Shown here piece after piece: positions 40,554 through 47,207 of a DNA stretch of 64,000 nucleotides. A program made the position numbers and the translations under genes. Positions within the stretch are counted from its first letter, which is position 1. Every line of letters starts with the position of its first letter. Under the pieces are notes generated by a model. The model did not search any database, was not told the origin of the DNA, and worked only from the letters and a program-made list of their open reading frames with translations. This DNA comes from a virus: the IMG/VR virus record IMGVR_UViG_3300050343_000268, positions 1 to 64,000 of that record; one strand, written 5' to 3'.

Positions 40554-40742
40554 ATGGCTTGTAAAAAATCTGAATTTGTTACTGCTGTCAACAGCTATGC
40601 CGCTGCTCGTACAACAGGTGATGTTAATTTACAACGGCTTTCGGGAGCATTGCTAGAGCAGCTCCTCAATACCCTTGAATTTGCAGAAGAAGTAGTCGAA
40701 GGTGAAACAGAAGTGAGTGAATCGGAAGTTGTTCCTGACTAA
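40554..40742 (+). CDS. Small hypothetical protein
   Basis: 62-aa ORF; TATACT box upstream. Confidence 0.6.
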   Translation: MACKKSEFVTAVNSYAAARTTGDVNLQRLSGALLEQLLNTLEFAEEVVEGETEVSESEVVPD

Positions 40743-41200
40743 CTAGTTGCTAATTTAACTTCAGCATCTCGCCTTTTAACAAGGCCCAACAATGGGCCGG
40801 TATTCCCATTAACCCATTTTGGGAATTCTTCCTGAAAACACAATGCTTTCTTCTCGCCGTTATTGATACGACGAGTAAAAGTACTGTTTTCTAGTGCATT
40901 ACTGCCAACGTTAAATGCAAAACTTACAATTGCATCAAATTCATGTTGAGTTAGAACAGGTAAAATGATCTTGACGACCTGCTCTTCAAACCACATGAGG
41001 TCCTTGCGTAATAACTCTTCTGCATCATCTTCAGTAATTACCTGACCATCAAATACCTGCTGAGTGTGGCCATATCCAATCGTGAGTACTGAACTGGCGC
41101 AATAGTACGCTTTAAGCTCTAAGCCCTCAAAAGACTTGATAAGGTCAACACCAGCTTGTGATGTGCGGGTAGGCTCAACCGAATGAGCTCCCGCCTTTAC
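40739..41200 (-). CDS. GH24 lysozyme domain, reached by -1 frameshift from the upstream peptidase gene
   Basis: Frame is open from 41200: TSQAGVDLIKSFEGLELKAY...TIGYGHT...FDAIVSFAFNVG...GLVKRRDAE; no ATG before the catalytic Glu. Confidence 0.85.
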   Translation of the reverse strand, partial: VKAGAHSVEPTRTSQAGVDLIKSFEGLELKAYYCASSVLTIGYGHTQQVFDGQVITEDDAEELLRKDLMWFEEQVVKIILPVLTQHEFDAIVSFAFNVGSNALENSTFTRRINNGEKKALCFQEEFPKWVNGNTGPLLGLVKRRDAEVKLATS

Positions 41201-41206
41201 TTTTTT
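41165..41206 (-). other. Programmed -1 ribosomal frameshift signal
   Basis: In-frame A AAA AAG directly before TAA, then hairpin GCGGG-A-GCTCA-TTCGGT-TGAGC-CTA-CCCGC. Confidence 0.75.
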
Positions 41207-41907
41207 AGATTTGGATCACTAACATCCATATACCATCCACTACCTTCACCTTCAACAATCCAACGTGGGTTAAAGTTTTTGTAGCTGTATTTTATCCCTG
41301 CACCATCAAGGTTATTTGTATAGCCACCACTGCGAAGTGATGCTTCTCCATTTGGATCATTGACCACCCACACTTCGTTGTCGTCGTCATAGCCAATAAT
41401 TACTGAGTAATGACCAGACCCTGAAGGTGAGCTAACAGGCCCCTCAAATAACCAACCTACTGCTACTGGTTTTCCAGCATCAATAGCGTCTTTCAAGGCT
41501 CGTGTCGTACCGTCAAACTTAAACTCTGCATCAAGATTAAGAGACTTCAGAGTGTTAACTTGTGATTGCGCATTCGTTGTATCTCCATATTGCTTACGGA
41601 TCGCGTTGTAATCGTCATCATTATCTATCTTTCCGTAGTACATTGCAACCATTGCCATGCTACTTGAAAAGCATTCTCTAAATCCCGATCCCGATGAATT
41701 ATCATTTTGACTTTGAAATGGCACACTTAATATGGTGCTGCTTGTAACCCCAGGCTTGTCACGGTAGGTCTTAACCCAAGCGTGTTGATCATCTTTAAGC
41801 ACATCTCGCATCTGCTCGTACAAAACTTGCACACCAGCCTTTTGCTGAGGTTCTGATTTGTAATACTTGAAAAAGTTTTCAAACTCTTTGAATGATAGAT
41901 TAGCCAT
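41197..41907 (-). CDS. Endolysin-like peptidase C39-like protein
   Basis: LSVPFQSQND...RECFSSS...GHYSVIIGY...VNDPNG (Cys-His-Asp triad). Confidence 0.8.
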   Translation of the reverse strand: MANLSFKEFENFFKYYKSEPQQKAGVQVLYEQMRDVLKDDQHAWVKTYRDKPGVTSSTILSVPFQSQNDNSSGSGFRECFSSSMAMVAMYYGKIDNDDDYNAIRKQYGDTTNAQSQVNTLKSLNLDAEFKFDGTTRALKDAIDAGKPVAVGWLFEGPVSSPSGSGHYSVIIGYDDDNEVWVVNDPNGEASLRSGGYTNNLDGAGIKYSYKNFNPRWIVEGEGSGWYMDVSDPNLKK

Positions 41908-41965
41908 TTTATATTTCTATTCTTAAGCATTCTAACTACTACAATATAATAAATGAGTCTTTATT

Positions 41966-42241
41966 ATGACACCTGAAGAACGCACTGACTTCTGGAAAGC
42001 TGTAGAAAGTGGAGAAAATCCTCTATTGTCTGTACTTCACAACTTAGTTGAAAAATGGGGATTGCCTGCAATTATTATGTGTTTAGGTGATATTTCTAAT
42101 GTCTTATCTGAAGATGCTGAAACAGCACCACTAAGCCCAAATCAGCGTGGATTAATCTTAGGTGCTTGTGCTCAAGTGTGCGCTCTAAGTGATCAAATGC
42201 ATGCTGAGATGGATTTCCTTACTCTTACAGACAATGGATAA
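41966..42241 (+). CDS. Hypothetical protein
   Basis: 91-aa ORF; TACAAT box at 41940. Confidence 0.6.
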   Translation: MTPEERTDFWKAVESGENPLLSVLHNLVEKWGLPAIIMCLGDISNVLSEDAETAPLSPNQRGLILGACAQVCALSDQMHAEMDFLTLTDNG

Positions 42242-44526: not shown

Positions 44527-44970
44527 ATGTCAAATTTTTCTAGCTGGTTTTCTCGTTGTGCAGGTGACTGGAAATCTTATAGGCGATACCTAACATTACC
44601 ATCGTACAAAGATGATTCATACAACACTGAGTTTACTATTAAAGTCGAAGACGACAAAGTAAATATCAGTTGGAATGGTGAAGTGAGTTCAGGTAATATG
44701 AACCTGACAATTGATGGGGATCTATTGCATCGTGATATTGGTTACTTTACTGATGACCCTAACGACAGCAAACTGACGTTGCTTGATGAAGACACTGTCG
44801 TTTTACACAGCGCATATGACGGTATGGAATTCCGTGAAGAGATTCGCCTGCTTGATGATGACAAGCATCGTCTTCGACAGACAGTTGGATATCGCAAAGG
44901 GAAGCCTTTTTTAGTAGGCCAGTACTGGGAGGAACGTCAAACACCTGTGGAAAAAATTGGCTTTGAATGA
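44527..44970 (+). CDS. CpcS/CpeS-family (S/V-type) phycobiliprotein lyase
   Basis: WF..CAGDWKSYRRY N-terminus and FREEIRLL...RLRQT...GQYWEER C-terminus. Confidence 0.75.
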   Translation: MSNFSSWFSRCAGDWKSYRRYLTLPSYKDDSYNTEFTIKVEDDKVNISWNGEVSSGNMNLTIDGDLLHRDIGYFTDDPNDSKLTLLDEDTVVLHSAYDGMEFREEIRLLDDDKHRLRQTVGYRKGKPFLVGQYWEERQTPVEKIGFE

Positions 44971-45136: not shown

Positions 45137-45943
45137 ATGAAAGTCTCTCAATTGCTCTTAAGAGTTCGCGATGAACAAGACATTCGCGATTCAACATTTA
45201 AATGCTGGCTTAAAGCAGCTAAGCCTATAGCTGATGTTGAGGTCAACGACATCGACAGGGCTACAGTTACTCGTTATTGGCAGTCTCAGCTCAAGCCAAT
45301 CGGTCCCCTCTCTCCTGAGACACTGCGCCGCCGCCTAAGCCTGCTGACAGGCATCTGGAATATGGGAATAGAAGATGAATTTATTGATGTGCCTAACTAC
45401 TGGAGTAAGGCAAGCAAGAAGATAAAACTAAAAACTGATTACAACCGCTTAGGTAAAGAGTATCTAGTCAGACCCTTTAGTTTCTACGGGAGGTATCAGG
45501 CAGATCCCATCTTCCTAGCCATCTGGTTTCATGGCTTCCGCATCGGTGAAATTGCAGGTCTGTTGCCAAACGAAATACGGTTCGACAATCAGATCCCATA
45601 CTTCAGAATTAGAGATAATAGCCTTAGGAATATCAAGCCCGGTGCTCAGAGAGACCTGCCTATTCATCCTGAGTTCTATCCACATGTCAATCGTCTTAGA
45701 ACTGACTACAGCCAAAACCCAGGCAAGAACTGGAGTCAGATGTTTAGCGAGCGATTGGAGCTACCAAAGGGTGAAGCAGCACACTCACTGCGTCACAACT
45801 TCATTACTCGCTGTAGGTCAGCAGAGCTGCAGGACTCGATGATCTCTAAGATCGTAGGCCACAAAATAAATGGAATGACAGCACGATACGGAACTTGGAC
45901 TTTGGAGGATAAGTTAAAAGCAATTCGTCAAGTAAGGCAGTAG
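45137..45943 (+). CDS. int: Tyrosine recombinase/integrase
   Basis: GFRIGEI (R), IK, HSLRH, VGH, RY catalytic set. Confidence 0.9.
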   Translation: MKVSQLLLRVRDEQDIRDSTFKCWLKAAKPIADVEVNDIDRATVTRYWQSQLKPIGPLSPETLRRRLSLLTGIWNMGIEDEFIDVPNYWSKASKKIKLKTDYNRLGKEYLVRPFSFYGRYQADPIFLAIWFHGFRIGEIAGLLPNEIRFDNQIPYFRIRDNSLRNIKPGAQRDLPIHPEFYPHVNRLRTDYSQNPGKNWSQMFSERLELPKGEAAHSLRHNFITRCRSAELQDSMISKIVGHKINGMTARYGTWTLEDKLKAIRQVRQ

Positions 45944-46540: not shown

Positions 46541-46936
46541 ATGGGATACGCAGAAGATTGGGGAGAACTTATGTTCAATCTCCAGTGCCTTTCAAAAGGC
46601 TCCGCCAAGCGACAGTTTAGAGAAGACATTCGTTACAGTTTTGGAGGACTATGTGCTTATTGCCGAATAAGAAGAGCTGACACTCTTGATCACTTGAAAC
46701 CACGCTGCAAAGGTGGAAGTAATTTAAGGTCAAATTTAGTTCCTTGTTGCAGAGAATGCAATCACTCCAAAGGAAGTGAATTATGGCTACCCTGGTATCA
46801 ACGACAGCTTTTTTATAATGCTGTTGCACAAGAGCTTATTGAAGAATGGATTGCTAACAAGCGTATTGACTTAGATGATTATGACGAACGAATTGACAAT
46901 CGAACAGAGGTTTGCCTTACAGCGAGCACGATATGA
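46541..46936 (+). CDS. HNH endonuclease
   Basis: CAYC...TLDHLKPR.KGG....NLVPCCRECNHSK. Confidence 0.9.
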   Translation: MGYAEDWGELMFNLQCLSKGSAKRQFREDIRYSFGGLCAYCRIRRADTLDHLKPRCKGGSNLRSNLVPCCRECNHSKGSELWLPWYQRQLFYNAVAQELIEEWIANKRIDLDDYDERIDNRTEVCLTASTI

Positions 46937-47207
46937 AGTGGCTCGAATGAGTAGAGGTGCACTAGAGAAAACCGCTGTACGGTTGCTCAAGTCACGCATG
47001 GAACAGAAGAATGGAGTTCAAGAGTTGCTAATGGGCAATGGAATCCTATTTAAGGTGCAAGAGCTTCAACAAGGTATGCCTGAAATTATTTCTGAAGATA
47101 CTTTCATCGAGCTATTAAAAATGCAAGATGATATATTACCTGCTGACATCATGGATGAGGGTTGGGAGATTGATGATATTGATGATGACGGTCTCACTAT
47201 GATGTGA
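46875..47207 (+). CDS. nblA: NblA-like phycobilisome degradation adaptor with acidic C-terminal extension
   Basis: ELTIEQRFAL......VARMSRGAL.....L...M......QELL follows the NblA pattern L-S-L-E-Q-x-F...V..MS. Confidence 0.65.
   Translation: MIMTNELTIEQRFALQRARYEVARMSRGALEKTAVRLLKSRMEQKNGVQELLMGNGILFKVQELQQGMPEIISEDTFIELLKMQDDILPADIMDEGWEIDDIDDDGLTMM

Follow-up and report, generated by a model that had tools for sequence, protein, structure and literature searches.

A candidate programmed -1 frameshift between the peptidase and lysozyme domains of a marine cyanophage lysin gene

How could a phage translate a complete lysozyme domain whose reading frame has no start codon ahead of its catalytic region? 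The question is posed by a locus on the minus strand of IMG/VR record IMGVR_UViG_3300050343_000268, a 77,056-bp viral record rated 97% complete, of which the first 64 kb (positions 1 to 64,000, hereafter the window) were analysed. Here an open reading frame (ORF) for a C39-like cysteine peptidase closes on a TAA codon, and the lysozyme lies directly behind it in the -1 frame. From the sequence comparisons described below we consider it highly probable that the two form one gene, from which a programmed -1 ribosomal frameshift would yield both a 26-kDa peptidase and a 43-kDa peptidase-lysozyme. Features of the gene are given by window coordinates, and all lie on the minus strand.

Two reading frames and the junction between them

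The 0-frame ORF (41197..41907, stop included) ends with the codons ...CCA AAT CTA AAA AAG TAA and predicts a peptidase-only product of 236 amino acids (26.4 kDa). Its end holds a phase-correct slippery heptamer, A_AAA_AAG (41200..41206), with the TAA stop (41197..41199) directly 3' of it. A candidate stimulatory hairpin predicted by RNAfold (41165..41194) begins 5 nucleotides (nt) past the heptamer and has two stem segments of 5 bp each and a 6-nt loop (GCGGG-A-GCUCA/loop/UGAGC-CUA-CCCGC), with a folding energy of -17.3 kcal/mol in 50 nt and -21.2 kcal/mol in 60 nt; the 60-nt fold has a z score of -2.43, with 1 of 200 shuffles folding as well. The open stretch of the -1 frame spans 41215 to 40739 and provides an extension of 153 codons plus stop (linker and lysozyme, 40739..41200) that would be read only after a slip. 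The predicted post-slip reading runs ...NLKK-VKAGAHSVEPTRTSQAGVDLIKSFEG... into the full Phage_lysozyme domain, with ...DPNLKKVKAGAHSVE as the junction peptide, and the full-length product would have 389 amino acids (43.4 kDa). This product is colinear over 388 residues, through the junction, with a 402-residue protein encoded by a natural in-frame fusion in a related locus, L036 (48% identity, E 2e-128).

The GH24 (T4/lambda-type) lysozyme domain (40760..41137) matches PF00959 over its entire length (profile positions 1-125 of 125, E 2.4e-38, 131.7 bits), and its solved relatives include 6h9d (E 2e-24). Alignment to solved lysozymes places the catalytic Glu codon, equivalent to Glu11 of T4 lysozyme, in an FEG motif at 41126..41128. 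No ATG, GTG or TTG occurs upstream of this codon in the -1 frame of the window, and the first in-frame ATG (40996) falls past the catalytic N-terminal lobe. The position of T4 lysozyme Asp20 is occupied by Cys rather than Asp in 29 of 32 related lysozymes (YYCAS motif, ~41098-41100 in the window); T4 lysozyme D20C keeps activity, so that Cys at this position is compatible with an active enzyme. Purifying selection acts on the start-less lysozyme ORF. The ratio of nonsynonymous to synonymous substitution rates (dN/dS) is 0.088 between the window and the related locus L007, with a median of 0.15 and a range of about 0.09-0.15 at dS >1, the same range as for the peptidase ORF, and complete lysozyme ORFs are intact in 31 distinct loci.

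The peptidase frame matches phrog_10051, annotated 'endolysin' (E 3.4e-71), and divides into two parts. An N-terminal helical domain of ~55 residues (41743..41907), conserved in all relatives in an alignment of 29 sequences and modelled by AlphaFold2 with helices at residues 6-10, 20-32 and 43-49, has no Pfam match even at an E value of 10. It is followed by a C39-like papain-fold cysteine peptidase domain (residues ~60-230; 41218..41730), supported by a Pfam match at residues 60-186 (PF13529 Peptidase_C39_2, E 1.9e-14, 54.8 bits against a cut-off of 24), by invariant columns and by Foldseek. Cys79, His166 and Asp184 are invariant in the 29 aligned sequences and are presumably catalytic. The AlphaFold2 model of the peptidase ORF (predicted local distance difference test score, pLDDT, 77.7) has a papain-like fold, and its best Foldseek matches are the C39 peptidase domains of PCAT1, AMS/PCAT and ComA, the C39-like structure 3erv and the pseudomurein endoisopeptidase PeiR (E 1e-6 to 1e-5), while at E up to 1 no PDB sequence matched a profile of the peptidase. 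A C39-type domain is listed among the domains of endolysins (PMC5017753).

An initial annotation, made from the sequence of the window, had described a C39-like peptidase ORF ending CTA AAA AAG TAA, a -1 frame open into a complete GH24 lysozyme without a start codon before its catalytic region, and a hairpin from 5 nt after the heptamer. The sequence, the translation, the two Pfam matches and the RNAfold prediction (41194..41165) agree with that description at each point.

The cassette in related loci and cultured cyanophages

The comparison covered 160 related loci taken from viral and metagenome collections and analysed by script, among which 37, representing 33 distinct junctions (51-100% peptidase identity), have a lysozyme directly downstream in the -1 frame. 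A phase-correct X_XXY_YYZ heptamer stands at the end of the peptidase ORF in every one of the 33 (A_AAA_AAG in 29, C_CCA_AAG in 2 and G_GGA_AAG in 2), whereas of the 84 distinct loci that lack a lysozyme downstream 1 has such a heptamer (Fisher 2.5e-28, with no correction for phylogeny). Heptamers with three A's are found in L012, L114, L122 and L131, that of L122 and L131 being G_GGA_AAG. All three types are named as highly shift-prone in E. coli in the review by Atkins (PMC5009743). The heptamer is kept while neighbouring codons and residues vary, and it goes together with the downstream lysozyme. Eight amino acids (L, A, Q, V, T, S, G and E) are represented at the codon preceding AAA AAG, yet this codon always ends in A, which points to a constraint on the RNA and not on the protein. 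In most relatives the stop abuts the heptamer (0 nt), the distance being 3 nt in L012 and L131.

A hairpin is likewise predicted in 33 of 33 junctions, starting mostly 5-7 nt after the heptamer (range 0-8), with a mean folding energy of -15.9 kcal/mol in 50 nt and a mean z of -2.7. Its stem takes at least six unrelated sequences that differ between clades at a common position (for example GCGGG/CCCGC, GGTCGG/CCGACC, GCCATC/GATGGC, GGGGGT/ACCCCC and, as a long-range stem, AAGGTTGA/TCAACCTT), and in L131 the hairpin spacing tracks the heptamer and not the displaced stop. This constancy of position under a changing sequence is the best evidence that the predicted hairpin acts as a structural element.

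The zero-frame stop is found well beyond the window. A search of 5.8 billion proteins returned 258 relatives, of which the best 120 clusters are ~199-251 residues long, contain peptidase domains only and include 67 with the C-terminal end KK, 11 with IRCPK and 2 with GK. Contigs from two independent seawater-metagenome studies cross the six-A run without gaps, and together with the lengths and ends of the clusters they indicate that the stop is real. The initial annotation had proposed conservation of the heptamer, stop and hairpin, and confirmation of the six-A run in accurate reads, as checks on a frameshift. The heptamer is present in all 33 distinct relatives, the stop lies 0-3 nt behind it, each clade has a predicted hairpin at this place with a stem sequence of its own, and the six A's recur in the contigs of both studies; all of these outcomes favour the frameshift interpretation. 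Relatives with seven A's, which the initial annotation had set against its own interpretation, do occur as a minority in three separate assemblies; we read them as natural variants, and they provide no evidence of an error in the window.

The same arrangement is present in a cultured phage, the T4-like myovirus S-PM2 (196 kb), where the peptidase is 34% identical to that of the window. In S-PM2 (NC_006820.1, 115534-116717) the gene p156 encodes a PF13529 protein of 231 residues and ends GCA AAA AAG TAA; the -1 frame overlaps its end, extends over 169 codons from stop to stop and contains a complete PF00959 domain, and a predicted hairpin with its stem starting 5 nt after the heptamer folds with -16.4 kcal/mol (z -3.45). 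In the GenBank record p156 is a 'hypothetical protein' and p157 a truncated, 72-residue 'putative lysin', with no mention of slippage. The predicted cassette of peptidase, A_AAA_AAG-stop, -1 lysozyme and hairpin at 5 nt is thereby found both in T4-like myoviruses and in the unrelated 77-kb phage. Other cultured cyanophages combine or use the domains differently. In S-CBS2 the two domains are encoded by a single ORF in the reversed order, lysozyme then peptidase (gp054, 383 residues), which needs no recoding, and in S-CBP2 the C39-like peptidase stands alone and is annotated as an endolysin (gp45, 220 residues); both proteins are <55% identical to the window domains.

Frameshifting weighed against other explanations

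We propose that most ribosomes would read the 0 frame and stop at the TAA, releasing the 236-residue protein with its N-terminal domain and C39-like peptidase. Some would slip back by one base on A_AAA_AAG, the two lysine tRNAs re-pairing from AAA-AAG to AAA-AAA, a step probably helped by the adjacent stop codon and by the hairpin 5 nt downstream, and would continue in the -1 frame to give the 389-residue peptidase-linker-GH24 lysozyme. The slip in the host and its efficiency are what we infer, as are the 'fixed ratio' put forward in the initial annotation, the roles of the two forms and the importance of their ratio. The two products would both attack peptidoglycan, presumably at its peptide cross-links and its glycan strands.

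Several observations weigh against this proposal. The window hairpin taken alone is moderately unusual (z -2.2 to -2.4), and in its clade of 15 members, where 91% of cells are paired, there are 2 compensatory pairs and covariation is weak. No upstream Shine-Dalgarno-like element (GGAG, GAGG, AGGA or AGGG within 20 nt) was found in any of the 33 junctions, and the frameshift efficiency is possibly low because this stimulator is missing. Peptidase-only endolysins occur in cultured cyanophages, and some lineages can thus do without the lysozyme extension. Both six-A and seven-A variants are natural, and thus the run also changes at the DNA level. Finally, the one metatranscriptome run found (X9) covers just 41290..41812, outside the junction, and is uninformative on junction expression or transcript indels. 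The initial annotation had classed the signal as dnaX/IS-type; the heptamer and the predicted hairpin fit that class, whereas the upstream Shine-Dalgarno-like element of dnaX has no counterpart in the 33 junctions. The predicted signal is thus one of heptamer, stop and hairpin, and not the full dnaX cassette.

Four other explanations were considered, which even when pooled we regard as improbable. In the first, RNA polymerase would add an A within the six-A run, and some mRNAs would encode an in-frame fusion that ribosomes read without any shift. The site is indeed a homopolymer of six A's, and seven-A variants of the DNA encode the fusion directly: L036, L037 and L155 are natural in-frame fusions, colinear with the product predicted for the window, and the L036 site differs solely by its seven A's (GCA AAA AAA GTA; seen in three separate assemblies). 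Four loci (L012, L114, L122 and L131), however, keep the -1 layout with just three A's, the run never departs from X_XXY_YYZ phase and is closed by a G in every case, and a conserved downstream hairpin at a fixed spacing would have no role in slippage. For polymerase slippage to be efficient, a longer run is also usually required, nine A's in the case of Thermus dnaX. We therefore judge transcriptional slippage very unlikely. The Thermus dnaX case is named in the recoding review (PMC5009743).

A second explanation takes the seven-A in-frame fusion to be the functional gene and the six-A copies to be phase-variants or inactivated genes that make peptidase only. In-frame fusions in the order peptidase-lysozyme do exist (about 9 protein clusters and 3 contigs), as do about thirty further protein clusters with the reverse order seen in S-CBS2 gp054, and some lineages have lost the lysozyme altogether. 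The latter include L014 (~940), the single heptamer-bearing locus among the 84 without lysozyme, together with L096 (~1305) and L108 (~1100), all of which retain the heptamer and, still in the -1 frame, a truncated linker of 8-13 codons, and look like recent lysozyme deletions that have left a remnant of the putative frameshift site. Against a switch or decay, at least 80 of 120 clusters of close relatives, a large majority, have the frameshift form. It has outlasted the saturation of synonymous sites with its lysozyme ORF intact and under purifying selection, and it is also present with heptamers that are unable to phase-vary. Two heptamer types carry just three A's, which disfavours slippage and homopolymer phase variation alike as the general mechanism. 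Moreover, L009 and L010 (around 2170-2215) have seven A's and, just upstream, a 5-nt duplication (attag); the changes together restore A_AAA_AAG-TAG in the peptidase frame with the lysozyme in -1, whereas without the duplication peptidase and lysozyme would be fused in frame. In the simplest interpretation, this one lineage lost the requirement for frameshifting and later restored it from the seven-A state, which would imply selection for making both forms. A DNA-level switch or decay seems to us highly improbable.

Thirdly, the lysozyme might be translated as a separate protein, by termination-reinitiation or from a non-canonical start past the peptidase stop. The close overlap of the stop with the -1 ORF resembles that of coupled genes, and in L153 (696-2043) the two enzymes are adjacent separate genes, a peptidase of 237 residues and a lysozyme of 207 residues with its own GTG start. 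Each of the L153 genes, however, begins with its own copy of the ~55-residue N-terminal helical domain, which suggests that the lysozyme needs that domain and that the functional unit is more than a lysozyme domain alone; in the frameshift form it is the fusion that would supply the helical domain. In most of the related junctions, as in the window, the -1 frame has no ATG, GTG or TTG from its preceding stop to the catalytic Glu, and independent translation would leave both the heptamer conservation and the hairpin unexplained, so that it has very little chance of being correct. The last explanation, an assembly or sequencing error for a true run of seven A's, is prompted by the error-proneness of homopolymers on some platforms and by the metagenome-assembled origin of the viral contig, and is almost certainly wrong: the run is crossed gap-free by contigs of two independent studies, many data sets contribute to the 33 distinct junctions and the stop recurs in >80 protein clusters, and the possibility was tested and rejected as far as the contigs allow.

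Setting of the gene and comparison with known systems

The source phage is a marine cyanophage, as indicated by the cultured relatives of its peptidase, all of which are Synechococcus or Prochlorococcus phages, by its CpeS-like and NblA-like genes, and by the sequencing runs that contain the window sequence, which are seawater or marine viral metagenomes. At 77 kb it is not T4-like. A blastn search of the locus against cultured phages gave no match. The window encodes a terminase, virion proteins and tail fibres as in other tailed phages. Within a block of >40 kb of plus-strand genes (context 993-47207) the lysin gene is the sole long minus-strand ORF (>=110 residues). A promoter-like site (GTGTCA-18-TATATT, 41943..41972) matches the consensus at 9 of 12 positions and is a possible promoter for this lone minus-strand gene; it is a consensus match only, with no evidence of function. 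The gene adjoins tail-fibre genes, and its product could therefore equally be a virion-associated wall hydrolase instead of a lysis endolysin.

At its 3' end the stop of the lysin gene overlaps that of a converging ORF of 62 residues (40554-40742). Downstream of the lysin lie host-like and mobile genes, which comprise a CpeS-like bilin lyase gene (44527-44970; PF09367, 45.5 bits), a weak phage-integrase match (45137-45943), an HNH endonuclease gene (46541-46936) and, overlapped at its 5' end by the latter, a gene for an NblA-like phycobilisome degradation protein (46875-47207; PF04485, 30.3 bits). A further architecture is seen in L004 and L005 (2413-3507; 72-kb viral contigs), where a single ORF of 364 residues joins the N-terminal domain, a GH73 glucosaminidase-like region recognised by eye and the C39-like peptidase, an arrangement that fits the 455-position length of the phrog_10051 profile.

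If the frameshift is used as proposed, gene callers would systematically mis-annotate many cyanophage lysins as a hypothetical peptidase and a truncated lysozyme, as has happened in S-PM2, and cyanophage lysis would employ two enzyme forms from one gene. The proposal would be directly testable in a cultured phage-host pair, and the family would constitute a natural allelic series for the evolution of frameshift signals, with three heptamers, at least six hairpins and in-frame seven-A, split-gene and reversed-order versions. A more far-reaching and rather doubtful idea is that the frameshift is a stoichiometry device for a mixed endolysin. The short and long forms would join, by way of the N-terminal part common to both, in a hetero-oligomer where peptide-cutting and glycan-cutting sites stand in a set ratio. 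The slip would depend on how lysine tRNAs decode AAG, and hence both the ratio and lysis itself could vary with the state of translation in the infected cyanobacterium; such recoding, so far unannotated, would be widespread in several lineages of abundant marine cyanophages. The lysine-tRNA set of the host governs the shiftiness of AAG. No tRNA gene is encoded in the 64-kb window. A single lysine tRNA decodes AAG in about half of bacteria (PMC5009743).

Tail chaperones and some capsid genes are the textbook cases of programmed frameshifting in tailed phages. No published report of frameshifting in a phage lysis enzyme was found in full-text literature searches or in a major recoding review (PMC5009743), with one older paper cited for a 'lysin frameshift' lying outside that coverage. 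The recoding mechanism is classical, and the gene class, a phage lysis enzyme, is new.

Among the systems to which the lysin gene can be compared, the tau/gamma cassette of E. coli dnaX has a stem-loop a few nucleotides downstream of its heptamer, comparable in position to the hairpin predicted for the lysin, and an upstream Shine-Dalgarno-like stimulator, which the lysin junctions lack (0 of 33). In dnaX the shifted frame stops at once and the slip gives the shorter product, whereas in the lysin the slip would give the longer one and the 0-frame stop abuts the heptamer. The dnaX heptamer is likewise A_AAA_AAG, on which lysine tRNAs slip in tandem, and the two dnaX products share their N-terminus (PMC5009743).

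In phage lambda the G/GT heptamer is G_GGA_AAG, and we know of no stimulatory structure for it. L122 and L131 use this heptamer type, one of those named in PMC5009743, and the two systems differ in that G/GT serves tail assembly and not cell-wall hydrolysis, the domain that would be added in the lysin being an enzyme. In transposons of the IS3/IS911 type the downstream ORF can often also be expressed alone. There A_AAA_AAG and a downstream structure fuse two overlapping ORFs into the OrfAB protein (PMC4066793), which differs from the lysin in being a transposase of a mobile element.

Endolysin genes with two isoforms have themselves been described, in enterococcal Lys170, clostridial CD27L and CTP1L and mycobacteriophage Ms6 LysA, and are based on internal starts. 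As in the window, one lysin gene gives rise to two forms that share a domain. The second form in those genes is N-terminally truncated and comes from the internal start, whereas the second form predicted here would be C-terminally extended by recoding.

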